IMG/VR virus record: IMGVR_UViG_3300045988_142422
Strand: one strand, 5' to 3'
From: a virus
Lineage: Duplodnaviria; Heunggongvirae; Uroviricota; Caudoviricetes
Length of the DNA stretch: 64,000 bases
In this document: positions 9,714-61,468 of the stretch, piece after piece
Numbering within the stretch: the first letter of the stretch is position 1
Layout of the letters: each line of letters opens with the position of its first letter
Program-made: the position numbers and the translations under genes
Notes under the pieces: generated by a model
The model's input: only the letters and a program-made list of their open reading frames with translations
The model's database searches: none
What the model was told of the DNA's origin: nothing

Positions 9714-9726
9714 AAACAAGTTGTTT
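9714..9726. promoter_or_regulatory. Palindromic motif A copy (AAACAAGTTGTTT) upstream of parA
   Basis: Perfect 6+1+6 inverted repeat, 36 nt upstream of parA ATG. Confidence 0.4.
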
Positions 9727-9761
9727 CAGACGATAATTATATACGCAAAGGGAACTCTCCA

Positions 9762-10430
9762 ATGACCAAGATCTTTGTGGTTGGCGGCACAAAGGGCGGG
9801 CCTGGCAAATCCACCGTTGCCCAGCAAATTGCCGTTTGCCTGAAAGTCAAAAAGAAGAAGAAGGTTTATATTACCGATATAGATATTCAGCGCACGACAA
9901 CGAGCTGGTGTGAAGACCGTCGACAGAACGAAGACCTTGAGCTGATTCCTTTTGCATACGTTCAGGATGACATCATTAAGCACCTAAAATCGCTTCAGGG
10001 TAGAGCTGAGTTTGTAGTGGTAGATGCTGGTGGCTTCGACTCCGAAATTCAGCGACAAGCGATGCTGATGGCTGACGTTATCATTATCCCGCTGCGTCCT
10101 AAGCGTCGTGATTTGAAATCTTTACGTGACATCGATCCTATTATCGACAATGTTCGCAATGTAAACGATAAAGTGAAGGTCCGCGCGGTCATGAACCAGT
10201 GCCCGGCTTTGCCATCACAAGTGTCTCGCATTCTGGCGGCTAAAGAGATTGTTGAGACGTTTGGAATCGAGTCTGCGCCAGTCAATCTGTATAACCGCAA
10301 CGTCTATGATGATGCGGAAGAGTCTGGTCGTTCTATCTTTGAAATGACCGGTAGCGAGCGCGACAAAAAGGCGGAAGCCGAGTTTGAAGAATTTGTAGAT
10401 TATCTGTTGAGTCTGGAGGAAGAAGAATAA
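9762..10430 (+). CDS. parA: ParA-family partition ATPase
   Basis: Deviant Walker A GGTKGGPGKST near N-terminus, about 220 aa, followed by small partner gene with ATGA-type overlap. Confidence 0.8.
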   Translation: MTKIFVVGGTKGGPGKSTVAQQIAVCLKVKKKKKVYITDIDIQRTTTSWCEDRRQNEDLELIPFAYVQDDIIKHLKSLQGRAEFVVVDAGGFDSEIQRQAMLMADVIIIPLRPKRRDLKSLRDIDPIIDNVRNVNDKVKVRAVMNQCPALPSQVSRILAAKEIVETFGIESAPVNLYNRNVYDDAEESGRSIFEMTGSERDKKAEAEFEEFVDYLLSLEEEE

Positions 10431-10789
10431 TGTCCATGAAAATGGGTGACCTAGCAAAGCGCAAAGAGCCTGATGCACCGGCTAAGAACACAACTCCTTT
10501 GCGCCAACCAGTCAGACCACAGGGACGCCCGACTCGTGGCAAAGAGAAAATTAAAAGCCGCACAATGTCACTGGAGGACGAATACTTCGAACTGCTGGAG
10601 ATGATGAAGTTCATCCCTCGCTTCGAGAAGTTCACTCGTTCTGACGTGATTCGAGCTGCTATTTTCCATCTTGCGGAGAAGACACCGCAGGAAATCGAGG
10701 ACATCGTGAAACTTAACGAGGCGATCACAGCTGCCGACGTAACGATGCGTACCGATGAAATCAAACGCGAGTTGATGAAGAAGAGTTAA
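10430..10789 (+). CDS. Small partition partner protein (ParB/ParG-like centromere-binding candidate)
   Basis: 119 aa basic N-terminus, start overlaps parA stop (TAATG); position and size typical of type Ib partition adaptor; no motif verified. Confidence 0.45.
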   Translation: MSMKMGDLAKRKEPDAPAKNTTPLRQPVRPQGRPTRGKEKIKSRTMSLEDEYFELLEMMKFIPRFEKFTRSDVIRAAIFHLAEKTPQEIEDIVKLNEAITAADVTMRTDEIKRELMKKS

Positions 10790-10827
10790 GAATAAGGCGC
10801 CAGATGGCGCCTATATTTTAAAGTGGT

Positions 10828-11505
10828 TTATTTATTGCCAGACGGTAATACATAGTAGCGGATTGTAGTACCCTCCATTTCAATAACCTTGAATGCAAGG
10901 TTTTTATATTCGACTTTTGTTTTCGCATCGGAAAGAGGCACTGAAAACTCGGTCTTAGTTTCATCTAAACTTGGGTAGCTTTCGGAATAAATAAATTTAA
11001 GGTCGTCGCCACTTTTGCCATTATAAGAAATAGACTGAACAATCTTTTTCTCTACATGGCAGGGGACATTTTGTGCGAATTTTATGGATATTTCGGAGGC
11101 GTCGAACGTCGTAGTGTTGGGAGGAGATATAGTGTTTTTGACCTTGTCATACTTGACGTTATCAGTGTGGCTCACTACCTGCCCTGTAATGGCCTTCAGG
11201 CCAACAGCTTTTGAGTCTTCAAAGTTCCGGTAGACCCCACCACCAACGTGGCAGTAGTTGCCCGCTTTAATCTCAGACATCGAACCAGAAGCGTTACCAA
11301 GAGTGACCATGTCGGTTTTTAACGTGGACACAAACGTGTTATAAACGACAAGGTCACCCATTTTCGCCTTTGACTCTACGTTAGAGGAAGGCAATATTTC
11401 TTGGGTTAGGATTGGTTTTACAGTGGCATTTTGTTGTGGGTTACTTTGTTGCGCGCAACCGGCTAATAATAAAACTAAAAGTGCCGCTGACTTATTCGCC
11501 TTCAT
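10828..11505 (-). CDS. Lipoprotein of unknown function
   Basis: Signal peptide with lipobox MKANKSAALLVLLLAGC; 225 aa. Confidence 0.55.
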   Translation of the reverse strand: MKANKSAALLVLLLAGCAQQSNPQQNATVKPILTQEILPSSNVESKAKMGDLVVYNTFVSTLKTDMVTLGNASGSMSEIKAGNYCHVGGGVYRNFEDSKAVGLKAITGQVVSHTDNVKYDKVKNTISPPNTTTFDASEISIKFAQNVPCHVEKKIVQSISYNGKSGDDLKFIYSESYPSLDETKTEFSVPLSDAKTKVEYKNLAFKVIEMEGTTIRYYVLPSGNK

Positions 11506-11868
11506 TCTTAATTCCCTTTCTACGTGATTGGTACATTGTTTATTTCTGGACGTTTCTTAAGTTGTAGACGCTATTCTGTGTCTGAGTAATCTACAATAAT
11601 TTGTTACACTTAACAATGTTGCAACCGTCTGGCGTGCAGCTGTTTTGAAGTAGATCTTAAGGTTGCATACCATGAGACTAAAAACTAGGTTGGGTTGGTT
11701 TTTGACCTGCTTCCGTATATAAATACTAAGTTACTTATTATTATTTATACGGAAGCAGGTCTTTTATCTGCTGACTTCCCAGATACATTCCCTTCCGTTT
11801 CCACTTCCAAAAACTGCCACCAGTCGCTATCATCCGCTCATCGTGATAAGTAAGTAACTACCTACCAG

Positions 11869-12618
11869 GTGAGCCACATGAGCCAAATCTTTTTCGATAC
11901 CATCGACAACTACCAGTACGACTTCATGACAGAGTGGAATACCGCTGTTATGGACAAGTGGGTCGCTGAAAACATTGGTTTGTCGCGCTGTAAAGATGAG
12001 GCTGAACTCTTCGAGACGAAGTGGTTTGATTACCGCGACATGCATCCTCTGATGGCCACCTGTCTATTTACGGAGACATACAAACGTCAGTACTCAAATA
12101 TCATGCTGACGCACGGTCGCGAACACTTTGAAACAGCTCCGTTCACCACCGGGTTAAAACGCCTGCCTTATCAGGAGTTGTCGACTGCCAATAAAACGTC
12201 GCTATGGAAAGCACGCCAGTTTGCTGACCGCTATTGCTGCTCATACGACTACTTTATCTCCACCGTTCTTTCCGCAGCTGCACGACGGCTGTGGGACAAG
12301 CTGCCGCGCCCACAGCATTTATGGCAGCCAGAGCTGATTGAGATATTCGAAGAGAAATTAGCCAGACGCGCAACAACCCGTCTGGATGACTCTCTCGTTA
12401 GCTTTAAGCATATGGGAGACATGCAGTTCAACCCGATTCAGGAAAGCTATTTTGAGTGGATTCTGGAGCGTTTACGCACCATCCCCCGCAGCAAGCGCAT
12501 ACGCGCAATTTTCTCCGCTATCTGGCTAATGGAAATCGTTCCAGAGCGCCTTATTTCCGCCCACTTTCCAGAAGAACTGGAAGAAGCACGGCGGTTTATT
12601 GATCCCCTATCTAATTAA
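11869..12618 (+). CDS. Hypothetical protein (upstream of replicative helicase)
   Basis: 249 aa ORF, GTG start at 11869 or ATG at 11878; motif B copy (11845-11866) immediately upstream. Confidence 0.5.
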   Translation: MSHMSQIFFDTIDNYQYDFMTEWNTAVMDKWVAENIGLSRCKDEAELFETKWFDYRDMHPLMATCLFTETYKRQYSNIMLTHGREHFETAPFTTGLKRLPYQELSTANKTSLWKARQFADRYCCSYDYFISTVLSAAARRLWDKLPRPQHLWQPELIEIFEEKLARRATTRLDDSLVSFKHMGDMQFNPIQESYFEWILERLRTIPRSKRIRAIFSAIWLMEIVPERLISAHFPEELEEARRFIDPLSN

Positions 12619-12629
12619 CTAATACTAGA

Positions 12630-12642
12630 AAACAATTTGTTT
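12630..12642. promoter_or_regulatory. Palindromic motif A copy (AAACAATTTGTTT) upstream of helicase gene
   Basis: Perfect inverted repeat 19 nt upstream of ATG 12662. Confidence 0.4.
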
Positions 12643-12661
12643 AAAAAACAAAGGAAAGCAC

Positions 12662-14040: not shown

Positions 14041-14149
14041 GGTGAAACAACTTTTCTTTTGCCAAACCACAAAAGAAAAACACATGAGCCTTTATGTTAT
14101 ATCAACATTTAGGTTGGTCACAATATTGCCTATTAAAAGTTGAATTATC

Positions 14150-18150: not shown

Positions 18151-18349
18151 ACGGGAGAAGGAAACGCTTCATGAAATCAGTAAGTGGCCGGAGTTCCCTG
18201 AGTACTGGAAGCCTAAAACGCGAGCTAAGTTAGAGCGTTTAGGGTTGGTTGCAAACGTTTCTGAAACGTGGTGTTCGGCCAACTACCAGTTAACTGATAA
18301 AGGGAAAGTATTGCTACAGCAATTAGTAGAATCAGGAGTGTTAAAATGA
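18134..18349 (+). CDS. Hypothetical small soluble protein
   Basis: 71 aa; start overlaps previous small ORF. Confidence 0.45.
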   Translation: MIVLSKREKETLHEISKWPEFPEYWKPKTRAKLERLGLVANVSETWCSANYQLTDKGKVLLQQLVESGVLK

Positions 18350-19563: not shown

Positions 19564-19638
19564 GATGGTGTAGCTCAGCGGTAGAGCAGTTGGCTGTTAA
19601 CCAACTGGTCGGTGGTTCGAATCCACCCACCATCGCCA
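19564..19638 (+). tRNA. tRNA-Asn (anticodon GTT)
   Basis: Cloverleaf by eye: acceptor GATGGTG/CACCATC, D-arm GCTC/GAGC, anticodon loop CTGTTAA, T-loop GGTTCGAATCC, 3' GCCA. Confidence 0.85.
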
Positions 19639-19640
19639 AT

Positions 19641-19716
19641 GCCGGTTTAGCTCAGTTGGTAGAGCGCCTGCCTTGTAAGCAGGATGTCAGCGGTTCGAGT
19701 CCGTTAACCGGCACCA
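19641..19716 (+). tRNA. tRNA-Thr (anticodon TGT)
   Basis: Acceptor GCCGGTT/AACCGGC, anticodon loop CTTGTAA, T-loop TTCGAGT, 3' ACCA; 2 nt after tRNA-Asn. Confidence 0.85.
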
Positions 19717-19940: not shown

Positions 19941-20027
19941 GGAGAGTAGGGAGCATGGTGCTCAAGCGGTCTTGAAAACCGTCCCATTGCGCAAGCGATG
20001 ATGGTTCGATTCCATTACTCTCCGCCA
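19941..20027 (+). tRNA. tRNA-Ser (anticodon TGA), long variable arm
   Basis: Acceptor GGAGAGT/ACTCTCC, anticodon loop CTTGAAA, long variable arm, T-loop GGTTCGATTCC, 3' GCCA; D-arm atypical. Confidence 0.7.
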
Positions 20028-20029
20028 GA

Positions 20030-20107
20030 CACAGCGTTGAGCGGTTTGGCCTTTTAATCAACTCGATTAAGACTCCGCTAACATAAACCAGACCGCTCAA
20101 CGCTGTG
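20030..20107. other. Long hairpin: 16-bp perfect inverted repeat CACAGCGTTGAGCGGT with about 46-nt loop, directly after tRNA-Ser
   Basis: Arms 20030-20045 and 20092-20107; shares CACARCGTTGAG core with the 19176 hairpin. Confidence 0.6.
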
Positions 20108-20181
20108 ATAGACAATTACGGCAGACGTTCTTAACCATAGCTTGCTAACATCCTAGCAACACTTTTTTAAGCGCAAAATCC

Positions 20182-20205
20182 AAAGGGGCTTCGGCCCCTT
20201 TTTTG
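20182..20205. terminator. Bidirectional rho-independent terminator
   Basis: GGGGC-TTCG-GCCCC stem-loop flanked by A-run and T-run (AAAGGGGCTTCGGCCCCTTTTTTG). Confidence 0.8.
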
Positions 20206-21114
20206 TTAATGATTGCCTAGATATGATTTTAGTTCTTCTTTAATGATTAGTGAGTATTCTAAAATATCACTTAGTAAAAATTTTGCTCTGTTAAAATACC
20301 CACCAAAAGAACCTAAAATTTCAGATGGTCTTTCTAAGAGCATCACAATATCATCTTCTTGCACTTTAGTAATGTAACTTCTAACAGCTTTTTCTCCAAT
20401 AACTCTTTTCTTACCGTTTATTTCAGATTCATCTAAAACCTTATTTATAAATTTTTCTGTATCATTGAATCGTCCACTATTGTGTACTATTGTATGTCTT
20501 AGTAGTTCAATTAGCTTGATGTTAAAGCGATAGTTTTTGCCAATCTTGTTGTTTGTTTCTATCTCTTTGAAGCCAGGTATTTTATTTCTGAAAATTTTAG
20601 TTATTTTTTTCGATGGGTTACTTTTTGCTTTTAATAATCTGTAATAAACTTCCCTTTTCCCAATTTCATCATCTTCAACCTTACCAAAATCACTTGAGGA
20701 CCATAAATCATTTCGAACACATACAGTATAGACATATATTGCCTCAATATAGTCTTCCAGTAACTCATAGGCTTCAGTAATAACCCACTGATATTGTTTA
20801 TTTTTCAAAGTATTACACAATCTTATCTTTTCTTCTAAATCAATGGCGCTGTTACCTATCTCTAATGTTGAACCTGTATATGGGTTTGAACATAAATGGC
20901 GAGCTAACGTTGTGCCACACTTAATCTTAATAGTTTCATTAATATTAATAATAGTATCTGGATTCTGTGCATACTCCACTTCTTTAAGAAGACGTTTTAT
21001 ATTTTTCTTTGTTGTATCATTTATCTGATTTAAATAGTCAAAAAGTAAAGATATTTCTTCTCTAAATTCGTTGTATTTATTTTCAATCAAAGAATCAGAC
21101 AACTTACCAATCAT
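20206..21114 (-). CDS. AT-rich hypothetical protein with HEPN-like R-x4-H motif (candidate abortive-infection/defence protein)
   Basis: 302 aa, Lys/Asn/Ile-rich, markedly lower GC than flanks; motif LLRHTIVHNSG; isolated on minus strand between tRNA cluster and glutaredoxin. Confidence 0.3.
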   Translation of the reverse strand: MIGKLSDSLIENKYNEFREEISLLFDYLNQINDTTKKNIKRLLKEVEYAQNPDTIININETIKIKCGTTLARHLCSNPYTGSTLEIGNSAIDLEEKIRLCNTLKNKQYQWVITEAYELLEDYIEAIYVYTVCVRNDLWSSSDFGKVEDDEIGKREVYYRLLKAKSNPSKKITKIFRNKIPGFKEIETNNKIGKNYRFNIKLIELLRHTIVHNSGRFNDTEKFINKVLDESEINGKKRVIGEKAVRSYITKVQEDDIVMLLERPSEILGSFGGYFNRAKFLLSDILEYSLIIKEELKSYLGNH

Positions 21115-21287
21115 TAAAACCTCTATAAAATGTACATTTCAAGGCAATCCTTACTGTAATCTATTGTCGTAATCACTTCAATTGTTTACTAGTCAATCAA
21201 TAAGTTACTACATACTTATCAAAAAAATCTGTTTGTAGTATAGTCTGATATGTTCGAATCAATATTTATAAAGGTATTTGTTAAGTT

Positions 21288-21533
21288 ATGACGATCACTA
21301 TCTACGGACGAGATAACTGCTCATACTGCAAACGTGCGGTCGAGCTGGCGAAGCAACTAAAGGGACATGGCTACGGTGATTATGAGTACATCGACATCAC
21401 CACTGCCGGTATCGACAAGGAAAAACTAAGTGAAATTGTTGGTAAACCGGTAGAGACTATCCCCCAGGTGCTGATCGATGGCCAGCCGATTGGCGGATAC
21501 ACAGAACTGGCTGTATACGTCAGCACCCTCTGA
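21288..21533 (+). CDS. Glutaredoxin-like protein
   Basis: 81 aa; redox motif CSYC near N-terminus; size and pattern typical of Grx/NrdH. Confidence 0.7.
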   Translation: MTITIYGRDNCSYCKRAVELAKQLKGHGYGDYEYIDITTAGIDKEKLSEIVGKPVETIPQVLIDGQPIGGYTELAVYVSTL

Positions 21534-21540
21534 TTTTAAC

Positions 21541-21563
21541 GGCTCACAGGAGCCGTTTTTTAT
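21541..21563 (+). terminator. Rho-independent terminator
   Basis: CGGCTC-ACAG-GAGCCG followed by TTTTTTA. Confidence 0.7.
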
Positions 21564-21743
21564 TCCCACCAAACCACTCCTGTTTCCCTTAAAATTCAAA
21601 AAACAACGTCTAAATGATTCCATACCTACTATGTATGGAATCATTGCTGAAAATGAGTTACTTTTACTCTTGATCCTATAAGAATCTATGCCTAATATAC
21701 TGTTTACTTATACAGTGCATCGGCGTAACTCGGTGATTGTCAT

Positions 21744-22847
21744 ATGAAAAATAGCTTTGACAGAGCACGCGCTGCGGAGAACACCTCAAAAGAGGCGATA
21801 GAGTATCTCGAAAGAGCATCTCAAATGCAGGCCGTTATGATCTCCCAGGTCAGCAATGACATGAGATTCTCGGACGCATTCATGTTATTCACTCGCTTAT
21901 CTCTGCTGATAACCAGACGTCGGCCAGAGATCGCTGTTCATTGTATTTTGATACATGTTTTGCCGCACATTGCCGATGTAAAAGTAAGTGACATTAATAG
22001 GTTCATGGTGAACCAACTGGTCAACCCACTAATACTGGATGGCAAAATTGTTATGGGCCGCCGCGTTTTCTCTCTGATGAAGCAGTTCCTTAGCTGGTGC
22101 GCCTTCCAGGGGATGATAGACGTGTCACCGTTAAACGATATGTCACTTAACAAAGTTGCCGGTGGCGCAAAGCCCACACCTCGCGAGCGGAAGCTGACCG
22201 ACGCAGAGGTATGGGTGTTCTGGAATATATGGGACTACTTCAATGTGTGTGCTGGTACAAAATGGGCGGCCAGGCTATGTCTTGTATCCGCAAGACGACC
22301 TGACGAAGTACTGCGGGCTAAAAAAAGTGAGTTCAATCTTAAGCGTGGGGTTTGGAATCAAGGCAAGAGGAACAAATCTGCCCGTGAGCATTCTCTGCCT
22401 TTAAGCTCATTAATGCGCACTTGTATTGAAGAGTTGTTCGAATATGGTAAAGACAGCCAGTGGCTCGTGCCTTCGAATAAAAAAATCGGGAAAGACCTTC
22501 CTATGTCTAAAGTGGCAATAGCCCAGGCATTACGTCGTATTCTGGAACGACCAGAACTGATGGAGCTTGAGCCATTTACACCCCGAGATTTGCGCCGTAC
22601 TGCGCGTAGTTACTTCCCAGCATTAGGCATAAGCCAGGAGGTATCACGTAAAATCATGAACCACAGTCTTGAGGGGATAGATCGGGTCTACGACCGGCAC
22701 GATTATATGGACGAGATGCGAGACGCCTTAGAAAGTTTCTCGACGTACATCGCATCAATCGTAGAGCAACCGGATTTAGACGAAATTGACCACAAATTTA
22801 AGGGAGATCGTCTATCAACAGAGCTTATTCGTGTAAATTTTTCATAG
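21744..22847 (+). CDS. Tyrosine recombinase (integrase or resolvase)
   Basis: C-terminal catalytic region DLRRTARSYF...HSLEGIDRVYDRHDY with R..H..Y signature. Confidence 0.7.
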   Translation: MKNSFDRARAAENTSKEAIEYLERASQMQAVMISQVSNDMRFSDAFMLFTRLSLLITRRRPEIAVHCILIHVLPHIADVKVSDINRFMVNQLVNPLILDGKIVMGRRVFSLMKQFLSWCAFQGMIDVSPLNDMSLNKVAGGAKPTPRERKLTDAEVWVFWNIWDYFNVCAGTKWAARLCLVSARRPDEVLRAKKSEFNLKRGVWNQGKRNKSAREHSLPLSSLMRTCIEELFEYGKDSQWLVPSNKKIGKDLPMSKVAIAQALRRILERPELMELEPFTPRDLRRTARSYFPALGISQEVSRKIMNHSLEGIDRVYDRHDYMDEMRDALESFSTYIASIVEQPDLDEIDHKFKGDRLSTELIRVNFS

Positions 22848-23228
22848 AGACTTTATGGCCTCAACAACCTTTTGTGATGCGCCTTTCTCTTTACCGAATC
22901 GCTCGTTATATGCAGCAAGAACCTGTTTTTCGTCCTCGTTAAGAGGAGCAGTGCCTTCTTTGTATAAAAATGCTGCGAGTTCGGGTTGGCGTTCTTCCAG
23001 CACCATCATCATAAGACGACTTGGCTCAATGCCCAGTGCCAGCGCCAGCGGACGAACCTTATCGATAGGCAAAGGAATTTTGCCGCTTTTAATTAAAGAA
23101 AGGTTGTTGGCGTTTTTATACCCAATTGTTTTGGCTATCTGGGCCTGGCTCATAGGTGAGGATTCAATCAACCCTGCGATAAAAGCAGCGTAGCGACTTT
23201 CTATAAATTCAATCTTGTTATCAGACAT
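22842..23228 (-). CDS. HTH (XRE-family) transcriptional regulator, candidate repressor
   Basis: Helix-turn-helix MSQAQIAKTIGYKNANNLSLIKSGK; divergent from downstream plus-strand genes across a 560-bp AT-rich intergenic region. Confidence 0.6.
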   Translation of the reverse strand: MSDNKIEFIESRYAAFIAGLIESSPMSQAQIAKTIGYKNANNLSLIKSGKIPLPIDKVRPLALALGIEPSRLMMMVLEERQPELAAFLYKEGTAPLNEDEKQVLAAYNERFGKEKGASQKVVEAIKSL

Positions 23229-23692: not shown

Positions 23693-23790
23693 CCCCTCTT
23701 CTCCCTGCGCGAATGGCTTAGTTCCCTGTTCGCGCAGTGCTACATTAAACACACTAGTAAATAATTTGTTTTCATAACAAAGGATTAGCC

Positions 23791-27436: not shown

Positions 27437-30400
27437 CTTCTCACTTGGGGAGTCGGCTCTAAAAGCAGAAAACGCGGTGAAGATTGCCAGAGAAGCTGGC
27501 TACACCGCTGTAATTTCAGCAGATAGCATGAATATTGCGAGCGTTATTCCACTACAACGTGCCGCTGGTGACGACATGGCGATTATTTGTGGTGTGAAAC
27601 TAAACATTGTTGATGATCCCACATACGAGCACCGGGCTAAACTTGCTAAAGAATCTATGAGATGTATGGAATCATTAGAGCGGGGACGTAACTACTCGTT
27701 TACCGCTCTAATTAAAAATGAGCAAGGATATCGCGACATCTGCGAACTAATGACGGCGGCCAACACACGAGAACAGTTCTACTTTGTACCGCGTCTCTCG
27801 CTCGAACAGTTGGTTTCTACATATGCCAAAGGCAACATCATCCTGCTTACTTCCGACATCGGTAGCGTGTTCCAACGCAACGATTTTGCAAAAATCATAA
27901 GCACACTGATTACAGCGGGTGGAAAAGACAACTTCTATAGTGTGGTTTATCCGCACCCTACCCCATTCTACGACCAGATTAACGTCCGGGCGATGAAAGT
28001 CGCCAGCGCATTGAAAATAGAGCCAGTGGCGTTCTATCCCGCTTATTACGAATCGATCGACGATGCAGACATTAAAGACATTGCGCACATGGTTACGAAC
28101 AACATCAAAATCGACCAGCCGCATCGTCTGCGTATCCCCCACCAGCGAGATAACGCCGTCAATGGTCGCCGCCATCTCCTTGAGGCGCTTAAAGCCTTCT
28201 CCGTTCGCATGGATGTGCCGGTAACAGCTGCAATGGCCTCAACAACGCAGGATACCATTATCGATTCCTGCACATGGCGCTGGCATGAATTGCCACCAGC
28301 ACTGCCCAAGATGGCAGACGACGAACCTGCAACGCTGATGAAACTGGCTGTTGCAGGGCTGCGTAAACGTCTTACCACAAAAGAGTTTGGATACACACCG
28401 CCTGCTTCTGAGAACAGGGTTTATGTTGAGCGGCTAAAGTACGAAATGGACACGCTGACTCGCCTGGGATTCTGTGGTTACTTCCTGATGGTGCGCGATC
28501 TGATGAATCATAGTCGTGAAACTGGCATTCCCGTTGGGCCTGGTCGTGGTTCCTCTGCCGGTTCTCTGGTGGCGTGGTGCATAGGCATAACCAACGTCGA
28601 CCCAATCCGTCACGGTCTTCTGTTTGAGCGTTTCATCAACCCTGAGCGTCTCGACTTGCCGGATGCGGACTTGGACTTCAGCCAGGCACGTCGCCATGAG
28701 GTGATCGAGTATCTGAATGAACGCTACGGCGAAGATTACGTTGCGGGTATTCCGAACTTCACCTACCTGGGCGCCGCTTCTGCGCTGCGAGACACTGCGC
28801 GTATTTACGGTGTCGACGCTGCGGATATGGCGGTATCCAAAGAGTTCAAGAATCTGGAAGACGATAGCCTGTCTCTGGAAGAGCTGCGCGAGCAACTGGC
28901 CAGCCTGGACAAATACGCCACGAAAAACCCGGAAGCGTTCAAAGCGGCGTGTAAGCTGCAAAGCCTGATGCGTGGTTTTGGTCGTCACGCTGCGGGGATG
29001 ATCGTCGCTGGCGTTCCACTGGTAGAGCGCACGCCCGTCGAGCTGCGTGGCAACGCTCGCTGTATTGCGTTCGATAAACGTTACTGCGAGGCGATGGGGC
29101 TGATTAAGCTGGACGTTCTCGGTCTGGCAACGCTCGATCTGCTGGATAGCGCGAAACGCTACATCAAAGAGAGTACCGGGGAAGACATCAATCTCGATGC
29201 TATTCCACTGGACGATCGTAAGGTTCTGGATGGGTTCGCTGCAGGGTACACGCAGGGCGTATTCCAGCTGGAGTCCGGCCCCATGCGCAAGCTGCTTAAA
29301 GATTTAGGTGGTGGAATTGAGCCAATGAGCTTTAAAACGGTCGTCGCTACAACTGCGCTCTTCCGGCCGGGGCCAATTCAATCAGGAATGTTGGATGACT
29401 ATGTTTCTGTCGCCAAAGGCTTTATGACGCCGGAATCATTACACCCCGTTCTTGATGAACTTACCGCGGAAACAAATGGCGTGATTCTCTATCAGGAACA
29501 GACGATGAACGCGACTCGATTGCTTGCCGGCTTCACAATGGCTGAAGCTGACGCTGTGCGTTCCGCAATCGGTAAGAAGAACATGGAAAAAATGAAGAGC
29601 ATGGGCGAGAAGTTCATCGTTCAGGCTCAAGCTGGCTGGATAGACGTTGAGCTGGAAGATGGCACTACACAGCGCATTCACCGTGCGGAACATTTTAAAT
29701 GCGAAGACGGAACTCTGAAAACTGTCGAAGAGGCACTTGAGCACGGCGCAAAACTACCTATAAACGCAGTACGCGTTACAGCGTCACATCCAGGGCTATC
29801 AGAGATGAAAGCGAAGGAGATCTGGACCGCATTTGAGAAAAACGGAGCCTATCAGTTCAATAAATCACACTCCGTTGCTTATTCTTTAATCAGTTATCAG
29901 TCTATGTGGCTAAAGACGCACTACCCTGCTGAGTTCTTCGCAGCTGCGCTCACCATTCTGGGCGAGGATAAGCATCAGGGGCTGGTGAAGGATGCGCTGA
30001 CCTATGGCATTCGCGTATTGCCACCAGACGTTAATGTGTCATCTAACCGAATTGAGATCCGCACACTCGAAGACGGCAGTCAGGCACTGTATGCGCCATT
30101 CTCTGCTGTGAAAGGCTGTTCTGAAAATGGTTGTCAGGCAATTATGCGTGCGCGTGAGAAAGTTGGTGGCAAATTCGAGTCAGTGGCACAATTCGATGAA
30201 GCGGTCGAGAAGCGTGCATGTAACAGTCGTGTACGCGAGTCGCTTCATAAAGTAGGGGCTTTTGCGTCAATTGAGCCAGGCAGTCTGCCAGCAACTGATC
30301 CTGAACGACTGCGCGACCAGGCTGAGCTGATGGGCAATCTCATCATTGACGCTGTTAAAGCATCACGTCCGTTCGAAATGAATCCTAAGCGTTCTGCCGA

Positions 30401-30960: not shown

Positions 30961-31232
30961 AAGAATTATGGCGCTTGTTGAGGAAGTCACTCCTCTTACG
31001 CACTTTGTTTTGCCATGCCGGCAGTTAGCTTCTGCCTTTGACTATTCATGCGGCAACCCCGCATTTCGCCACAATGGGCAATTCACTTTTATGGAATAAA
31101 CTGGCCGTTGTGTCGATTTAATTAGCATGGCCTTACCATGCTAATTTATTCAACTTGTACAATCCTACAAATCTATCCACTCAGGCTTACACCGTCTTCG
31201 TTATTGTAGAAATGAGGATCATCAGCGTTGAA

Positions 31233-31448
31233 TCAGCTTAGAGCAACGACATTTGCTGCTGCTGGGCCTTTAGCCCCATTCTCGATAGAGAATTCGACCT
31301 GCTGGCCTTCTTCCAAAGTGCGGAAATTATTACTCTGAATTGCCGAAAAATGTACAAAAACATCTTTACTGCCATCAGCAGGAGAAATAAAGCCAAAGCC
31401 TTTATCAGAGTTAAACCATTTTACTAAACCAGTCATTTTATTAGACAT
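31233..31448 (-). CDS. cspA: Cold-shock protein (CspA family)
   Basis: [38 protein letters not shown]... near-identical in pattern to enterobacterial CspA; track ORF extended upstream of true start. Confidence 0.95.
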
Positions 31449-31777
31449 AGATATTACCTTCTTAATTTTGTGAGCCACATAGTGCGGCGAGAATTTGATC
31501 TGTATAGATTGGGACTTACTTAGGCACTTAAGGAGGAGACTCACGAAGAAGGGAAATCAGAAGATAACACTGAACTGAGACTGCTTTACTAAAACTGCTT
31601 ACATAAGGTCTGTCTTGCAAACCAACGATGCTATTAACGCATACCCCTTCTTTTCATGCAACCTTTATTTTTCAAAGATAACTAATTTTTGTCACCATTG
31701 GTTTAGTAAACGTTAACGAACCAGACGATGCCAGACACCTTTACAGAGAACAGATGCCCGCCAATTGGCGGGCATCA

Positions 31778-37948: not shown

Positions 37949-37974
37949 AGGCGTCCAGTTGGACGCCTTTTTTA
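37949..37974 (+). terminator. Rho-independent terminator (same stem as 36811 copy)
   Basis: AGGCGTCC-AGTT-GGACGCCT then TTTTTTATC. Confidence 0.8.
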
Positions 37975-37994
37975 TCGCAATTATCTTATTAAGA

Positions 37995-38007
37995 AAACAA
38001 TTTGTTT
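37995..38007. promoter_or_regulatory. Palindromic motif A copy (AAACAATTTGTTT)
   Basis: 16 nt upstream of ATG 38024. Confidence 0.4.
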
Positions 38008-39552: not shown

Positions 39553-40030
39553 CCACTGCGGTGAGTAGTCTGCTCACCGCATTCGTATCCAGCTCATTAT
39601 CCACTGTAGTCAGTAACAAAACCTTCCTACATATCTGCTAACCACTGTAGCGAGTAGACAGCCTTTCATTCGCATCAAACAACCACTATGGTGAGTATTG
39701 GAGTGAGATGTCCAGCGGGTATCCACTATGGTGAGTAAGCCTTTGCTGTTTTCAGTGGATATCCACTCGCCACAGTGGATACGCTCAAAGATGAGGGCGA
39801 CAACAACCACTATAGACAGTAAATTTTCCAAGATACCCAGTGACCACTAACCTCGCAGCCCTTGTTTCATCAGTGTTAGTGATCACTAACATTTAATTCG
39901 GTATTTGCATTCTACTGCCTACAGTGGTTATCAACAGATAACGATACTCACTATAGTGGATAGCGAATTACAGATATAAGTAAGGCTCACTACAGTGGAT
40001 AGTGAGCCTTACTACTAACTACAGTGGTTG
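39553..40030. repeat. Iteron array downstream of repA (copy-control locus candidate)
   Basis: At least 9 copies of about 16-22 bp units with core CCACTRYRG / CYRYAGTGG in both orientations. Confidence 0.8.
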
Positions 40031-40032
40031 GG

Positions 40033-41088
40033 CTATTTGCGAGTCTTTGCCTTGCGCAACTCTTCGAGAAGCGCCAGTTCTTCTTTACTCAACATGACCA
40101 TTTTGCCTTCTTTTTCGTCAGGCACAACGTCGATAATGTCATCTTGATTCTCATCTGGGAGGCTATATTCCGTCTCATCATTATCGATTTTTGTTGATAT
40201 TTGTGCCTGGCGTAACTTTGGCCGCCTATAGTGGATGACGAAGTAGACCGAGTTTCCGCGCTTAACTTCCGTGTAATCGAGATATCCTATCTCTCGCAGC
40301 TGTTCCATAGCCTTTCTTACCGTCGCATTCTGAGTAATAGTGCGACTTGTCAGATTAAGTCTGGCGCGTAAACGGGCTAGTGATATTGGTGCCGGATCAG
40401 GCGGCAAACTTTCAATAAAAGTATAAAGCGCCTGAGCGGATTCTTTTCTTGAGAGTTCGTTTATAGCCCGGAGTTGCAGAAGAACCTTTTTGTCGAACTG
40501 GTAGAGTTCGAAAATCTTGGGATCTGCTTTCAGTTCGACCGTATCGTGCTTGACACTATATTTTGCCGTTTGCACAAGATGCGTTACGTAAAACTCATCA
40601 GAGCCTTTGCTACGGAACGAGATGGTATTTGTGGCAATACGGCTTAGCGAACTGTCCAGGCGTTTGCGTAACTTCGCTGATGACCTGGCGGTCGGAATGC
40701 CACACAGCCTTACAAACTCAACGAACGGCAACGTGACAGTATCGCCAACGACCTTGTGTTTGGCAAACGCGTGGATTATTCCCACCCACGTTTTAAAGTC
40801 GTTATCCATATCAAGCCGAAGGCCAGAGATCCTTATGTCTTCGTACCCTTCGGCTTTTGCCAGAGACAGCTGTTTGAGTTCAGCAGAGGCATCCATAGAG
40901 ACCATTTGCCCCTTTCTTCCTCTGGATGTCGATTTCAGCGTCGGAACGAAGAGGCCCAGACGCATCAAAGCAACAGGCTGAACAGTGTTATTAGTGTTAG
41001 GAACCAACGTAACAACTTCGCCTGTCTTTTTATCTGTTTCTGAAAATGCTTCAACGATCGCTATGTTTTTATTGCCGTTTTCGCTCAT
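40033..41088 (-). CDS. repA: Iteron-binding replication initiator RepA (Rep_3 / RepFIB-P1-like)
   Basis: 351 aa minus-strand ORF flanked on both sides by iterons; family assignment by context and general resemblance, not searched. Confidence 0.7.
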
Positions 41089-41130
41089 TCCAAATGTCTC
41101 TTGTTATTCGACGGCTTTGGTGGCCTTTGC

Positions 41131-41256
41131 TGATTACAGTGGATAGTAGCACTCATCACAGCGGTTATCCTACCGTCTATAGTGGTTTTTCTCCTCTCTA
41201 TAGTGGTTGCTTTGCTCCCTATAGTGGATTATTCGCTCTCTATAGTGGATATCGAT
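41131..41256. repeat. Iteron array immediately upstream of repA
   Basis: Six tandem units about 21 bp: TACAGTGGATAG, CACAGCGGTTAT, CTATAGTGGTTT, CTATAGTGGTTG, CTATAGTGGATT, CTATAGTGGATA. Confidence 0.8.
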
Positions 41257-41298
41257 CATGTCTGAAGGCAGATGGCACAACGGTTTGAGGTGGGCGGG

Positions 41299-41513
41299 GA
41301 TCTTATTGGGTCTTTATGGGTCTCTTTGGTTCTCTTTGTGATCTGAATTACTGGATCGGGCCTGTGGATAAAAATCAGAGGATTTCAAGAACAGGTAACT
41401 CTACTCTTCTGTGGATATTTAAGGACATAAGAATCATGACTAAGAGTAGAGTTTAAAATATATCTATGTATATCAGTATGTTAATGAAGAATTAAGTCAT
41501 TAAGTTATCCATA
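41299..41513. promoter_or_regulatory. Origin-like region: DnaA-box matches, AT-rich tract, GATC sites
   Basis: TGTGGATAA at 41363-41371 (perfect DnaA box complement), TGTGGATAT at 41410-41418, TTATCCATA at 41505-41513; GATC at 41299, 41340, 41354; AT-rich 41440-41500. Confidence 0.6.
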
Positions 41514-41525
41514 AAAGACAATGTG

Positions 41526-41636
41526 CTCTACTCTCTACAGTGGATATATACAGCTCTCCAGAGTGGTTGTTTTACTCTTCATAGCGGTTATTCAGCTCTC
41601 TACAGAGGTTTCTTTGCTCTCCATAGTGGATGGCAA
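41526..41636. repeat. Second upstream iteron array
   Basis: Five units about 22 bp with cores CTACAGTGGATA, CCAGAGTGGTTG, CATAGCGGTTAT, CTACAGAGGTTT, CCATAGTGGATG. Confidence 0.75.
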
Positions 41637-49663: not shown

Positions 49664-49726
49664 CATATGGTGGGGTATAACCCCACCTTCTCTTTGATTT
49701 GTAAGCCTTGTTTAAACAAATAAGAT

Positions 49727-49738
49727 AACAACTTGTTT
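49727..49738. promoter_or_regulatory. Palindromic motif A copy (AACAACTTGTTT) upstream of nrdB; second copy TTGTTTAAACAA at 49708-49719
   Basis: Two overlapping-family palindromes 30-60 nt upstream of ATG 49769. Confidence 0.4.
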
Positions 49739-57463: not shown

Positions 57464-57614
57464 CGTTCCCCTACTGAAAATAAAGCCCATAGAGAGCTTT
57501 ATAGTACTGGGTAAGCCAATCACATACCCAGCACCACAAAAACGCGCCAGAGAGCTTCTCGTTTGCATTTCTGGCGCGTTTTATTTGATTGCCAGACATA
57601 AAATCAAACGCAAA

Positions 57615-57636
57615 AATAGGTATTTACTTACCTATC
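57615..57636. promoter_or_regulatory. Palindromic motif B copy (AATAGGTATTTACTTACCTATC)
   Basis: Arms ATAGGTA/TACCTAT; ends 10 nt before ATG of methyltransferase gene. Confidence 0.45.
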
Positions 57637-57646
57637 GAGAAAGAAG

Positions 57647-58240: not shown

Positions 58241-58425
58241 TTTGTTCTGGCGTCTGTAATTAGCCTGCTTCTGTATATATAAATAACTACATATTAATTA
58301 TTAATATACGGAAGCAGGCTGTTTTGTATCAGAGACTCCAGACCTGAACATCACTACAGAATCCACTAGAACCCCTTCCCAGACGCTTTAAAATCGATTT
58401 TATGAACCACTTTAAGGAAACCAAC

Positions 58426-58656
58426 ATGTCATACCCGACTAATGTCGTTGCGCTCGTAGAGAGCGATTTTCTGGCCCAGGCTCGTGAAATGATGAAAGAT
58501 CGTGAGCAGGCTTTCAACTTGTACGAATGGGCAATTAAGTGCTTGCATCTTGGCGAGCATCGCGAACTTGTTGAACAGCTTTTAGGTGAGTTGATCAATG
58601 AGGTGTTTGCCTTGAATGTTCAACTACATGGTAGAGAAAATAATCAATCACAATGA
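58426..58656 (+). CDS. Hypothetical small protein
   Basis: ATG after AAGGAAACC; 76 aa. Confidence 0.45.
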   Translation: MSYPTNVVALVESDFLAQAREMMKDREQAFNLYEWAIKCLHLGEHRELVEQLLGELINEVFALNVQLHGRENNQSQ

Positions 58657-59238
58657 TAGATAAGTACAAACTATTCATAAAGTGAATTGTAAGTGCTAAG
58701 ATCTGATAGTTTCCAGTCGTAGACTGGAGACTCGACCTGATGGGTGGGGGTAAGCGTCACTGGCGTCAGGTTTAAAAAAGCTCACTACCAGCGTAGAACT
58801 GGTGCCGTTTAGGTGTCGGGGAAGGGGGAACCAAAGTGAGCAGAGACAAGGGTCACTTTATGATTGTCGAGTCTGGGGGGTTTCGAGAGGTTGAATCCAG
58901 TACTCCCCTTCATAAAGTGTGGGAAGATCTCGGTTCTGGGGTGCTGTCATCCATAACTTCCCAAGTCTAAGCTGGCAGTAGACTTAGACCATAACTTTTC
59001 AGGTTATGAAACGACCAGGTTGGTGAGAGATTTTTATACTCACCTCCCTGGGAGAGTATTACCTGAAAAGACAACCTCTCACTTCGTTCGAGGTGAACTT
59101 CACTCACTTCGTTCGTTCAGTTCAGGTTTATAAAAACCTGTTCTGGGAAGTAATTTGTTTATTTTAATAATTATTAACACGCACGCGTGTGCGCACGCGC
59201 GAGGAAAAATCGGCGCGGCGCTTGATTCAGGAGTTTAT
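58657..59238. other. ORF-free, G-tract-rich structured region with alternating purine-pyrimidine tract (candidate ncRNA, pac or origin element)
   Basis: No ORF of 60 aa or more on either strand in 58657-59154; GGGGG runs near 58742, 58817, 58873, 58938; 13-bp direct repeat CTCACTTCGTTCG at 59078 and 59103; (CG/CA)n tract 59177-59201. Confidence 0.4.
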
Positions 59239-59829
59239 ATGACGACGAAGACACCAGCCCGATCGCAAGCAAAAACTCGCAAAAAAGCCAAAAACAAAAA
59301 TTCCCCCCGCACCAATCCCACAACGCCTGTCGTAGAGTTCAATCCCCAGCTTAAAACCGTGAAAATCTTTAGTGATGGCTCTTGCCTTAAAAATCCGGGT
59401 GGCCCGGGCGGTTACGGTATCGTTCTCCAGTATCGTGGTGAGGAACGCGAGTTCTCAGATGGTTTTCATAGCACCACCAATAACCGCATGGAGATGATGG
59501 GGGCACTTATCGGGCTGGAGCGTTTGAAATATCCATGCAACGTTATTTTGCACTCTGATAGCCAGTATCTGAAAAACGGCATGACACAGTGGATGAAATG
59601 GTGGAAACGCAATGGATGGATGACTTCTGACAAAAAACCGGTAAAGAATGTTGATCTGTGGAAGCGTCTGGATGAGGCCGCAAGTCGACATAATGTTCGC
59701 TGGAAGTGGGTTAAAGGTCACGCCGGGCATCGTGAAAATGAAATATGTGATCGACTCGCGAAGATCGCAGCTTTTTCAGCAGCAGATATGCCTCACAAGA
59801 AAGATATTGGTTTTGTTTATAACAAATAG
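59239..59829 (+). CDS. rnhA: Ribonuclease HI
   Basis: ATG after AGGAG; basic N-terminal linker then [18 protein letters not shown]...HSDSQYL...[17 protein letters not shown]. Confidence 0.85.
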
Positions 59830-59977
59830 TAAGTAAGTGTTTACCTATCATTTTAAATCATGTATCTTATCGGCGTCAGGATGACAATGTGTCGGTAAGA
59901 CACAGTTCCAGGATGGAACGAGAAAGGCGGCTGGCAATCGCCAGCCGCAACTCTTTCTGACACTGGATGGAGTCCAC

Positions 59978-60472
59978 ATGGCACGTCAAACCTATTTCAC
60001 TTCTGTAACTAAACGTCCTCGTTCTTTACGTCAAATTTTGGCCGAATTATTTAGCGGTCGTGTTATGTCACGCCTTGATGAACTAGAGACTACCGTTCGG
60101 TTGCTGAATGAACGTTTAGATAATCAAGCGTCAGTTGTTGCGAACGTGGGGGCGATTGTTGCCTCTGGTTCTTCACGCGAAGCGAAAAATGCACGGCCTT
60201 TAGTGAAGGAGAAAAACAACAAGGACAGTTCGAATGGAAAATTTTCAAAGAAAGAGGCTGAAACCAATGGCCTACGTTCTCATTATAGTTTCACTGGCGA
60301 CGGTAGCCGTTCCAGCCGGTCAGAGCCTTTTGATGCCGGATTCATCCACCACCACACCTTCGTCGACGACAATTACCACCACTCCAGTGGAGCGTCCTGT
60401 CACTCTGGATGGGATGGCGGTGGATGCGATACCTCAAGTTCATCCAGTTACTCAGGATCATGCTGTGACTAA
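59978..60472 (+). CDS. Hypothetical protein with Cys/His-rich C-terminus
   Basis: 164 aa; overlapped in another frame by 60234..60485 ORF encoding a Thr/Pro-rich hydrophobic-N-terminus peptide; true frame unresolved. Confidence 0.35.
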   Translation: MARQTYFTSVTKRPRSLRQILAELFSGRVMSRLDELETTVRLLNERLDNQASVVANVGAIVASGSSREAKNARPLVKEKNNKDSSNGKFSKKEAETNGLRSHYSFTGDGSRSSRSEPFDAGFIHHHTFVDDNYHHSSGASCHSGWDGGGCDTSSSSSYSGSCCD

Positions 60473-60481
60473 GGCGGTTGT

Positions 60482-60670
60482 ATGAACTGGTTTTCAAATC
60501 ACTTTGGAAAAATTTGGCTGGCAATTCTTGCCCTCATGGCCGCCGGTTGGGTATCGAACATTATAAAACTTGTTTGCTCTGGCGATCTCCAGTTTCAGGC
60601 TGGCATGACCTTGGCTCGTGTAGTTGGGATTTTTATTTTTCCAGTCGGTTCGGTACTTGGTTATTTCTGA
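60482..60670 (+). CDS. Small membrane protein
   Basis: 62 aa, two hydrophobic segments. Confidence 0.4.
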   Translation: MNWFSNHFGKIWLAILALMAAGWVSNIIKLVCSGDLQFQAGMTLARVVGIFIFPVGSVLGYF

Positions 60671-60726
60671 CGGTTGTTAGTGCATATGCATTGACCGTCT
60701 TTGCGTAAGCAATTTATTTAACTAGA

Positions 60727-60739
60727 AAACAACTTGTTT
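60727..60739. promoter_or_regulatory. Palindromic motif A copy (AAACAACTTGTTT)
   Basis: 24 nt upstream of ATG 60764. Confidence 0.4.
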
Positions 60740-60763
60740 TGACAAATAACAAAAGGAAAACAC

Positions 60764-61189
60764 ATGTTAGGTTTCTTCAAAAAGAAAACTCGTAAAGCAG
60801 TTATCGAAGTCAAAAAAATGGAGAACCGTGATGCGGTTGAGGCCACCGTGTGGGGCGCGTACATGATCTCCTATGCCGACGGCACATGTGACGCAAAAGA
60901 AATTGCCATTCTTGAGAAGACAATTGCAGCTCTGCCTGCGTTTTCTCCGTTTGCTGGTGAAATTGCCCAAATGAGCGCCAATATCCGTGCTCGTTACGAA
61001 GCGTCCCCTCGTTCTGCTAATGCACAGGCTATTCGTGAGCTGTCTGATATTGCGGGTACTCCAGAGGCGGTCGATGTTCTGTGTCTGTGCCTTGATATTG
61101 CCGATCAGGACGGCATTGGTGAACAAGAAGAGCAGGCACTGAAAAAGATCGCCCAGGCGCTTCAGTTGTCACTGGATGCTTATCTCTAA
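60764..61189 (+). CDS. TerB-like domain protein (tentative)
   Basis: 141 aa; pattern AYMISYADGTCDAKEIAILEKTI and second acidic repeat resemble TerB-type domains; unverified. Confidence 0.3.
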   Translation: MLGFFKKKTRKAVIEVKKMENRDAVEATVWGAYMISYADGTCDAKEIAILEKTIAALPAFSPFAGEIAQMSANIRARYEASPRSANAQAIRELSDIAGTPEAVDVLCLCLDIADQDGIGEQEEQALKKIAQALQLSLDAYL

Positions 61190-61347
61190 TGCTTGAGAGA
61201 TTCCGGCTTGTGACCGTCATTGCTCTTCTGGTGATGGCGGTGTTGGTGGATTTTACGGGAAAGATGATGTCTGTCATTTCTGATGGCGTCCTCATTGGTC
61301 TGGCGATCTACTTCGCTTATCCGCTAGTCCGTAAAGCAACGTGTTAA
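61189..61347 (+). CDS. Small membrane protein (52 aa), translationally coupled
   Basis: ATG overlaps upstream TAA (TAATG); hydrophobic VTVIALLVMAVLV and LIGLAIYFAY; below ORF-track size cutoff. Confidence 0.35.
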   Translation: MLERFRLVTVIALLVMAVLVDFTGKMMSVISDGVLIGLAIYFAYPLVRKATC

Positions 61348-61455
61348 TGACAAGGGCCATTTGGCCCTTGTGTTTCGTTGACCGAAATAGAGAGTTTGCA
61401 CCTTTACGTTTAGCTTGCTCCCCTTTTATGCCACATCACAATAAAGCCAATAAGA

Positions 61456-61468
61456 AAACAACTTGTTT
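61456..61468. promoter_or_regulatory. Palindromic motif A copy (AAACAACTTGTTT)
   Basis: 18 nt upstream of ATG 61487. Confidence 0.4.

Follow-up and report, generated by a model that had tools for sequence, protein, structure and literature searches.

A conserved AGA-AAACAA-N-TTGTTT element before the rightward genes of SSU5-type phage-plasmids, a candidate repressor operator

The stretch of DNA considered here is 64,000 nucleotides long (IMG/VR virus record IMGVR_UViG_3300045988_142422, Caudoviricetes) and is referred to throughout, at its full length, as the window. By megablast it belongs to an Escherichia coli phage-plasmid of the SSU5/pHCM2 group. Seven copies of the palindrome AAACAA-N-TTGTTT lie within it, all of them shortly before start codons, and on balance this motif is probably a double-stranded-DNA operator of a repressor encoded by the element itself, which would silence the rightward transcription units of the plasmid-prophage. 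The motif marks the promoters of essentially all of these units, namely parA, replication, nucleotide metabolism, the early genes and the late operon. It predicts where the start sites of the rightward units lie, and it provides a bait for the master regulator.

In the same megablast comparison, the window is 97% identical to Escherichia phage CMS-2020a and phage Cyrano, 81% identical to Salmonella phage SSU5 and about 78% identical to its Klebsiella relatives. BLAST matched it to 1389 plasmid records, including Yersinia pestis pMT1. It contains tail genes, lysis genes, parA, genes for replication and recombination, RepA and genes of nucleotide metabolism, and in the annotated genomes of Cyrano and SSU5 nearly all genes run rightward. 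Phage-plasmids of the SSU5/pHCM2 type are common in clinical Enterobacterales and carry resistance genes.

The motif in the window

Searching the window for AAACAANTTGTTT with at most one mismatch gives seven sites, where 0.35 would be expected, and none of 100 shuffles reaches seven. The sites start at 9714, 12630, 23759, 37995, 49726, 60727 and 61456 (Table 1). Five of the seven are perfect, the imperfect ones being AAATAATTTGTTT at 23759 and TAACAACTTGTTT at 49726. All are intergenic, and each stands 5' of a plus-strand start codon. Positions that qualify as both intergenic and start-proximal make up 3.3% of the window, and the probability that all seven sites fall in them is about 4e-11. 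The trinucleotide AGA is found directly 5' of the palindrome in six of the sites and AGT in the remaining one, and the leaders share the context AAAGGAAAAACACATG. A 12-mer lacking the spacer had no match in the scan of the window. When the whole element was scanned for with a position-specific weight matrix, the seven sites stood clear of the background, with nothing intermediate between the two. The two-mismatch class is near chance in the window (13 found against 6.8 expected); three of its members, at 14045, 60707 and 63085, are positioned like decayed copies. Only one third of the regulon is visible in the window.

An earlier, sequence-only reading of this DNA had described the AAACAA-N-TTGTTT family as lying 16-36 nt upstream of start codons. 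Both the non-random occurrence and the placement are borne out, the range in the window being 16-35 nt. The seven copies that it listed are real, with a shift of coordinates for two of them: the CobT-like copy is at 23759-23771 and the nrdB copy at 49726-49738. A further listed copy, at 49708-49719, turns out to be an everted TTGTTT|AAACAA without spacer, and not the 6-N-6 motif. The proposed fixed distance to the ribosome-binding site does not hold, the spread to the start codon being 16-35 nt in the window and 11-42 nt in the family. It is also worth adding that this reading described leader copies alone, and that inverted copies upstream of promoters form a second class, as set out below.

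Table 1. Copies of the motif, related sites and the parA operon in the window. Distances run from the end of the palindrome to the start codon.
Feature	Position	Strand	Description
parA	9762..10430	+	222-aa short ParA/MipZ-type Walker ATPase, without N-terminal DNA-binding domain
ParA partner gene	10430..10789	+	119 aa; overlaps the parA stop codon; Cyrano 29975-30334, SSU5 31162-31518
Copy 1	9711..9726	+	AGA+AAACAAGTTGTTT; 35 nt before parA ATG (9762)
Copy 2	12627..12642	+	AGA+AAACAATTTGTTT; 19 nt before DnaB-like helicase ATG (12662)
Weak copy candidate	14045..14057	+	AAACAACTTTTCT, 2 mismatches; 26 nt before likely primase start ATG 14084
Copy 3	23756..23771	+	AGT+AAATAATTTGTTT; 19 nt before CobT-like ATG (23791)
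Copy 4	37992..38007	+	AGA+AAACAATTTGTTT; 16 nt before ATG 38024 (DUF7238 protein)
Everted half-sites TTGTTT/AAACAA	49708..49719	strandless	Partly conserved in Cyrano and SSU5
Copy 5	49723..49738	+	AGA+TAACAACTTGTTT; 30 nt before nrdB ATG (49769)
Degenerate copy	60707-60719	+	AAGCAATTTATTT; 20 bp upstream of copy 6
Copy 6	60724..60739	+	AGA+AAACAACTTGTTT; 24 nt before TerB-domain protein ATG (60764)
Copy 7	61453..61468	+	AGA+AAACAACTTGTTT; 18 nt before ATG 61487
Decayed copy	63085..63097	+	AAACAAATCTTTT; before ATG 63113

The individual copies stand in quite different surroundings. Copy 1 forms the 3' end of a conserved parA control block of about 65 nt, whose flanks diverge in the footprint alignment, and it is retained in three distant relatives (L030, L028 and L291). 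Copy 2 occupies most of a 43-nt intergenic gap; its SSU5 orthologue is AAACAAATTATTT, and L291 has AAACAAGTTGTTT before its helicase gene. Upstream of copy 3 there is an extended -10-like sequence, TGcTACATT (23738-23746), with a 12-nt spacer, and the orthologous copy in SSU5 is perfect and has TGaTAAATT at the same spacing. At nrdB (copy 5) an A-to-T change at palindrome position 1 creates TAAGAT, which by inspection could serve as a -10 hexamer lying over that position (TTGTAA-N16-TAAGAT); the promoter scanner made no call there. Copy 7 has CACAAT/CAATAA 13 nt upstream and a CCCCTTTT box further 5', and the module to which it belongs is paralogous to early-promoter modules outside the window.

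Turning to the weaker sites, the one at 14045 can only tentatively be regarded as a real copy, given that the two-mismatch class is near chance overall. The primase gene that follows it probably starts at ATG 14084, which is in frame and has the family context AAAGAAAAACACATG; the open reading frame (ORF) list and, by alignment, the Cyrano annotation place the start at GTG 14150. The decayed copy at 63085 is orthologous to a perfect copy at 82468 in SSU5.

Promoter architecture

With all copies aligned, the consensus module consists of GCCTT(T/A)T, 9 nt, the extended -10 element TGnGATAAT, 13 nt ending in cAAGA, the palindrome, a Shine-Dalgarno (SD) sequence and ATG. A -10 weight matrix applied at every offset has a sharp peak at the 13-nt spacer, where its mean is -0.3, as against about -6 elsewhere. 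The copies fall into two classes. Class A copies have AGA on the 5' side and are co-oriented with the gene, and class B copies are inverted, with TCT on the 3' side; the pooled non-redundant set holds 161 of the former and 47 of the latter. Of the 87 class A copies that have a strict or recognisable -10, 78 begin 13 nt downstream of it, and class B ends 19 nt before the -10 in 37/39 cases. On the assumption of a transcription start about 7 nt beyond the -10, class A would cover roughly +8 to +20, and class B would span roughly -44 to -32. Two spacings recur between neighbouring copies in the non-redundant set, 51 bp (46 pairs) and 25 bp (20 pairs). In leader copies across the family, the ATG most often follows the palindrome at 12-13 nt.

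The two arms of the palindrome are not equivalent. In both classes, despite their opposite strands, hardly any variation is seen in the arm adjoining AGA, the one that always faces the -10. In class A the mismatch frequency is 0-0.05 in this proximal arm and reaches 0.23 in the distal arm; in class B it is 0 at five of the six proximal positions and 0.19 at the sixth, with 0.15-0.36 at three distal positions. Given that the same arm is near-invariant and faces the -10 in both classes, the functional unit is, as far as the alignments go, an oriented 16-mer, AGA-AAACAA-N-TTGTTT, mirrored about the promoter core, and not a plain palindrome. The 6-N-6 core recognised by the earlier reading is thus kept, as one part of a longer and directional element.

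Three of the window copies are found downstream of intrinsic terminators of the preceding gene. These are copy 4, which is 24 nt past the terminator at 37949-37968 and its T-run, copy 5, behind a terminator-like hairpin at 49669-49687, and copy 7, behind another at 61350-61371. Because these terminators leave only 24-85 nt, the promoter must abut the motif, and the motif must lie at or just after the start. The suggestion that the motif is an operator overlapping the transcription start is accordingly the one that we favour, with the qualification that the placement at about +8 to +20 is predicted from the -10 spacing.

Two further features of these promoters were noted. The GCCTT(T/A)T box lies exactly 9 nt upstream of the extended -10 of early promoters, at about -28 to -22, in Cyrano (93-99 kb), in SSU5 (82-95 kb) and at about 61410-61420 in the window, and its position is reminiscent of the T4 MotA box. 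At the head of the late operon, before terS, there are two copies of the motif 25 bp apart (Cyrano 57-134, SSU5 56-133). They are followed, directly before the SD sequence of terS, by a GC hairpin with a U-run (GAGCGC..GCGCTC TGTGTGTTTT), a layout that suggests control of the late genes by antitermination. A conserved ORF of 88 aa ends just upstream of this leader.

Conservation across the family

The complete genomes of Cyrano and SSU5 have about 18-20 copies each, and many of these fall beyond the window, among small early genes with a promoter apiece. Among 50 related IMG/VR loci, up to about 20 kb long, 48 carry 2-12 copies; the two loci that are free of copies are short (4.1 and 6.6 kb). 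The core is unchanged across E. coli, Salmonella, Klebsiella, Enterobacter, Nissabacter and Yersinia pMT1. It is unchanged also where the proteins have drifted to 48-57% identity, as in Enterobacter wuhouensis, Nissabacter and an E. coli chromosomal copy, and it is kept both in Y. pestis pMT1 and in the remote group of about 110 kb represented by L291 and L292. Before parA the motif persists while the flanks have become unalignable. One locus that has no BLAST alignment to SSU5 (L019) carries class B copies only, together with a downstream half-site.

A text search of the literature, half-sites included, found no description of the motif, and no repressor or operator of the SSU5 group turned up in two reviews that were searched for one (PMC11652158, PMC7969092). 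The motif is most likely previously undescribed within the literature searched, but of a familiar operator kind.

Expression in the lysogen

Transcriptomes of the LF82/Cyrano lysogen are available as normalised counts, with a median of 9.8 (PMC9928086, S1 table). Genes behind the motif have counts of 5-25: the helicase gene has 21, the CobT-like gene 7.8, nrdB 12.9, CYRAN_58 5.7, the TciA-like gene 7.0, CYRAN_87 7.1, the early genes 6.7-25 and terS 7.1. For parA the count is 50. The genes that are expressed in the lysogen are on the opposite strand and do not have the motif. Silence at promoters whose extended -10 is near consensus would speak for transcriptional repression.

Duplex DNA or RNA stem

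The sequence-only reading had offered, as its other possibility, an element recognised on the leader. As an RNA stem this has no support. Among about 120 non-redundant copies with 1-2 mismatches there is no compensated pair, and one G-U pair. Pair counting over 35 distinct copies gave 79.5% paired cells, compared with 80.2% for shuffled sequences, and the covariation score did not reach the mean of the shuffles. The hairpin has a predicted dG of -0.7 kcal/mol, and Rfam has no match at the motif sites. A selected RNA stem is not supported. We therefore rejected an RNA hairpin, as well as an N4-type hairpin promoter (5-bp stem, 3-nt loop), on the grounds of the missing covariation, the value of -0.7 kcal/mol, the presence of ordinary extended -10s and the lack of an Rfam match. 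A single-stranded site bound by a protein, weighed below, is the less likely reading. Recognition of duplex DNA is favoured, because palindromy is meaningless for a single strand and because class B copies exist.

Proposed mechanism

We infer the start positions, the repressor function and the binder, and the mechanism that we consider best is as follows. An element-encoded protein, in the simplest case a symmetric dimer, would bind the 13-bp core, with tighter contacts on the AGA side, which faces the -10 hexamer of the promoter. The leader copies would be located at about +8 to +20, or over +1 at some of the window genes. Some promoters have a second, inverted copy at about -44 to -32, at a distance of 51 bp; because 51 bp is about five helical turns, the paired copies would be on the same face of the helix. 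The target promoters, with an extended -10 and no good -35, would otherwise be constitutive, and the bound protein would block open-complex formation or promoter escape. In this way the replication, nucleotide-metabolism, early and late (terS) units would be kept silent in the plasmid-prophage, and parA would only be damped.

Several points weigh against this account. About 46% of the leader copies have no strict -10 match, and a consensus scanner calls no canonical -35/-10 promoter at the seven window copies. Because the -10 is lacking there, the sole constant neighbour of some copies is the SD sequence and ATG, which would fit a role at the RNA level too. The transcription starts are placed from the -10 consensus and from nothing else. 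The element is asymmetric, with AGA on one side and a loose distal arm, an asymmetry that would not be expected of a simple symmetric dimer. Lytic genes are almost all silent in a lysogen anyway, so that the RNA-seq data discriminate weakly and can be taken as supportive at most. With regard to the binder proposed below, pMT1 keeps the motif and does not have the gene for the ParA partner, and three remote lineages have ParA and the partner but no 6-N-6 motif before parA.

Candidate binding proteins

The leading candidate for the binder is the 119-aa product of the gene that follows parA, which would be a centromere-binding repressor of the ParG/omega type. We propose this tentatively, and regard it as a real possibility. 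The parA product itself, encoded by the first gene behind copy 1, matches MipZ, AAA_31, CbiA and ParA in Pfam. The tail of the partner is basic and disordered, and a conserved block, IKSRTMSLEDE...FTRSDVIRAAI, is invariant from 100% down to 48% identity, its putative DNA-reading strand included; to the eye the block reads like a ribbon-helix-helix (RHH) signature. The AlphaFold2 (AF2) model has residues 1-47 disordered, followed by helices. The gene is conserved beside parA down to 48% identity and in remoter lineages as well, its operon starts with the motif, and its count in the LF82 lysogen is 89. It is annotated as a 'RelE/ParE putative toxin' in Cyrano, and in SSU5 it is called 23 codons short (SSU5_034). 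The position of the gene, the disordered basic tail and the conserved block suggest that the protein is a partition adaptor and not a toxin, and the layout fits the architecture of type Ib centromere-binding proteins (PMC5016525).

The other candidate is a protein of the FljA family (PF03614, E = 1e-80), encoded outside the window at 100780-101301 in Cyrano. A full-length member is present in every SSU5-type element examined, including those of non-flagellated Klebsiella. It is modelled as a tandem Sm/Hfq fold, and its gene is active in the lysogen, at a log2 value of about 7-8 under several conditions. The family is known to work post-transcriptionally on fliC mRNA (PMC2652032). The motif is unchanged alongside FljA-like proteins of 48-57% identity, and pMT1 keeps both. 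Flagellin leaders were compared with the motif. In 76 distinct leaders the best match was 5-9/12, equal to that in random windows, and the leader of K-12 fliC has merely a loose similarity. The fliC gene of Citrobacter amalonaticus has CAAGTTGT right before its SD sequence, and the Salmonella fliC leader is of the same type; as a match to the full motif this is no better than random, and the likeness was discarded.

A helix-turn-helix (HTH) 'putative repressor' at 22842-23228, with a weak match to HTH_19, was also rejected. It is part of an integrase module that is missing from SSU5, a phage in which the motif is nonetheless present. The genes of two ParB_N proteins, both located outside the window, are silent in the lysogen, with counts of 5 and 9.5 against the median of 9.8. 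Searches of the small conserved ORFs against PHROGs and Pfam returned no functions. As for host regulators, the motif core resembles an IHF consensus, WATCAANNNNTTR, at 7/9 specified positions, and it is not known to resemble the sites of CRP, FNR, Fur, LexA, PurR, Cra or NrdR.

The identity of the binder matters. Should it be the ParA partner, a single protein acting at about 20 scattered sites would couple segregation to prophage silencing. Should it instead be the FljA-like Sm protein, the element would have an immunity system that works post-transcriptionally, and the origin of FljA would come to light. With either binder, the site could be used to de-repress or cure SSU5-type elements.

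Alternative explanations

The most serious alternative is an operator in the leader RNA, where a FljA-family protein would bind AGA-AAACAA-N-UUGUUU before the SD sequence, block ribosome loading and destabilise the mRNA, as FljA does on fliC; the duplication of promoter cassettes would then account for the inverted upstream copies as by-products. We judge this to be rather unlikely. The universal presence of a full-length FljA-family protein, its expression in the lysogen and the post-transcriptional action of the family on fliC mRNA (PMC2652032) all fit, and the retention of the gene in non-flagellated Klebsiella argues for a role within the element. The leader copies are moreover strictly co-oriented with the gene, most often at 12-13 nt from the ATG, and it is the 5' arm that is conserved. 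A palindrome, however, would be pointless for single-stranded recognition, the stem is without covariation and barely stable, and the match of fliC leaders to the motif is at the level of random windows. The upstream copies also speak against it: they lie at a constant -38 on the opposite strand and show the same difference between arms with respect to the -10, no good divergent promoter was found at them by inspection, and L019 has upstream copies only. The background RNA levels behind near-consensus promoters likewise point to silencing at transcription. A more far-reaching version, in which the leader copies are RNA operators of the tandem-Sm FljA-family protein and hold some twenty lytic and replication genes off post-transcriptionally, Salmonella FljA being a domesticated copy and the upstream DNA copies a second layer or cassette remnants, strikes us as improbable.

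It might also be that the copies are a dispersed centromere, a set of partition sites of the type Ib ParA system that are bound by the 119-aa partner and scattered over the replicon as in the phage-plasmid N15, with any effects on promoters being secondary. This would overlap with the repressor operator that we prefer if the same protein represses; taken by itself it seems to us improbable. N15 has dispersed inverted repeats that serve as centromeres, and omega and KorB are global repressors that act from such sites. Here the motif opens an operon of parA and the small partner gene that overlaps it, distant relatives with unalignable flanks still have the motif before parA, and the partner, with its disordered basic tail and helical C-terminal part, is like type Ib centromere-binding proteins (PMC5016525). 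Its RHH fold is only putative, however, and type Ib centromeres are typically arrays of repeats beside parA, where a single copy is found here. A partition site has no need to be locked at 13 or 19 nt to -10 hexamers, nor to be co-oriented with genes, and pMT1 keeps copies while using a P1-type ParAB, without this parA operon. A still less probable idea is that the motif is an activator site or phage-specific promoter element, through which a lytic factor, for example the 88-aa protein encoded upstream of the terS pair, switches units on or times them. The absence of canonical promoter calls at the window copies would be accounted for in this way, as would the two copies 25 bp apart, with a terminator hairpin behind them and no sigma-70-like -10 upstream, that stand before terS, where the 27-kb late operon begins; the upstream copies are centred near -38, a position where activators can act. 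Yet most copies are downstream of a near-consensus extended -10, which should need no activator, +8 to +20 is the position of a repressor, and the use of one motif for early, middle, late and parA units argues against a signal of timing class. Finally, the motif might have no dedicated function and be a by-product of A-rich unstructured leaders or of a duplicated promoter and ribosome-binding-site cassette. This we disfavour as very improbable. Many copies outside the window do lie in clearly paralogous promoter modules of about 90 bp, and the shared leader context is in keeping with such an origin, but the contexts of the window copies (parA, helicase, CobT-like, nrdB) are not homologous, the core survives where the flanks diverge beyond alignment, and neither the excess over the 0.35 sites expected nor the rigid spacing and orientation is explained.

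Other features of the window

A second motif family, ATAAGTAAGTA(..)TACTTAT, is found at 11846(+), 33326(+), 18805(-), 36855(-) and 42608(-), preceding the 11869 ORF, the gene for a gp32-like single-stranded DNA-binding protein, the 36898 ORF and SbcD. It is probably the 'motif B' to which the earlier reading had assigned a separate set of genes, and to that extent the claim stands, in that a distinct family does exist before other genes. A related sequence, TAAGTATGTAAGTGTATACATAGG, is found before three genes in the remote relative L291, so that this family too is conserved.

Iteron-like repeats, TACAGTGGATA and ATCCACTATAG, are located at 39598-41540, on either side of the minus-strand RepA gene (40033-41088); presumably they represent the origin of the plasmid and its incompatibility repeats. 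Rfam identifies a full-length cspA thermoregulator at 31208-31626 on the minus strand (185.7 bits), and the element carries a cold-shock-protein gene along with its regulatory 5' untranslated region. There is an island of low GC content (0.36) at 20001-22000, with a minus-strand ORF at 20206-21114. The Cyrano gene at the matching place, as judged by coordinate offset, is CYRAN_43, whose lysogen count of 7084, against the median of 9.8, is far above that of any other gene of the element. Two tRNA genes are located at 19564-19713. A 14-mer, ATGTATGGAATCAT, is repeated four to five times, at 18346(-), 19358(-), 21631(+), with an inverted partner at about 21603, and 27662(+); one occurrence is an inverted pair immediately 5' of the integrase gene (21744).

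Comparison with known systems

A close parallel in logic is with the C1 operators of P1. There too, a phage-plasmid has many short sites at the promoter and start regions of lytic, replication and accessory units, and one protein that silences them. The C1 operators are asymmetric 17-mers of the ATTGCTCTAATAAATTT type. They have no sequence similarity to the SSU5 motif, which in contrast has a 6-N-6 core and occurs in pairs that mirror each other about an extended -10, and a repressor resembling C1 was not identified in the SSU5-type element. The analogy is thus proposed for the logic only, with no membership implied.

Type Ib partition systems, such as omega of pSM19035 and ParG of TP228, and the system of N15 resemble the parA operon described here. 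They have a short ParA and a small partner with a flexible basic tail (PMC5016525), the presumed site of the partner precedes the operon, and short repeats work in both orientations. In the SSU5-type element, by contrast, the RHH fold is putative, and no array of partner-binding repeats was found next to parA, where there is a single copy, the others being dispersed. The omega heptads and ParG boxes are unrelated in sequence to the SSU5 motif, the roughly 20 copies of which hold fixed positions relative to -10 hexamers. Elsewhere, cases are known in which a single centromere-binding protein controls several promoters, and in which centromere repeats lie scattered among the promoters of a phage.

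The OB sites of KorB, from the IncP plasmid RK2, have the same geometry, a 13-bp 6-N-6 palindrome. In RK2 about a dozen copies of OB, adjacent to promoters or distant from them, link partition to global repression, and KorB is a ParB-family HTH protein with the site TTTAGCSGCTAAA. The ParB_N proteins of SSU5-type elements, on the other hand, are encoded outside the window and silent in the lysogen. The regulation of fliC by FljA in Salmonella flagellar phase variation is similar in that a family member is found in every element and leader copies lie in the 5' untranslated region before the SD sequence. It differs in that fliC leaders have no significant match to the motif, that inverted upstream copies are outside the leader, and that there is no evidence of RNA structure. 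By sequence the motif is not a member of the P1 C1, omega, ParG, KorB or N15 families, and its likeness to them is in the logic of control.

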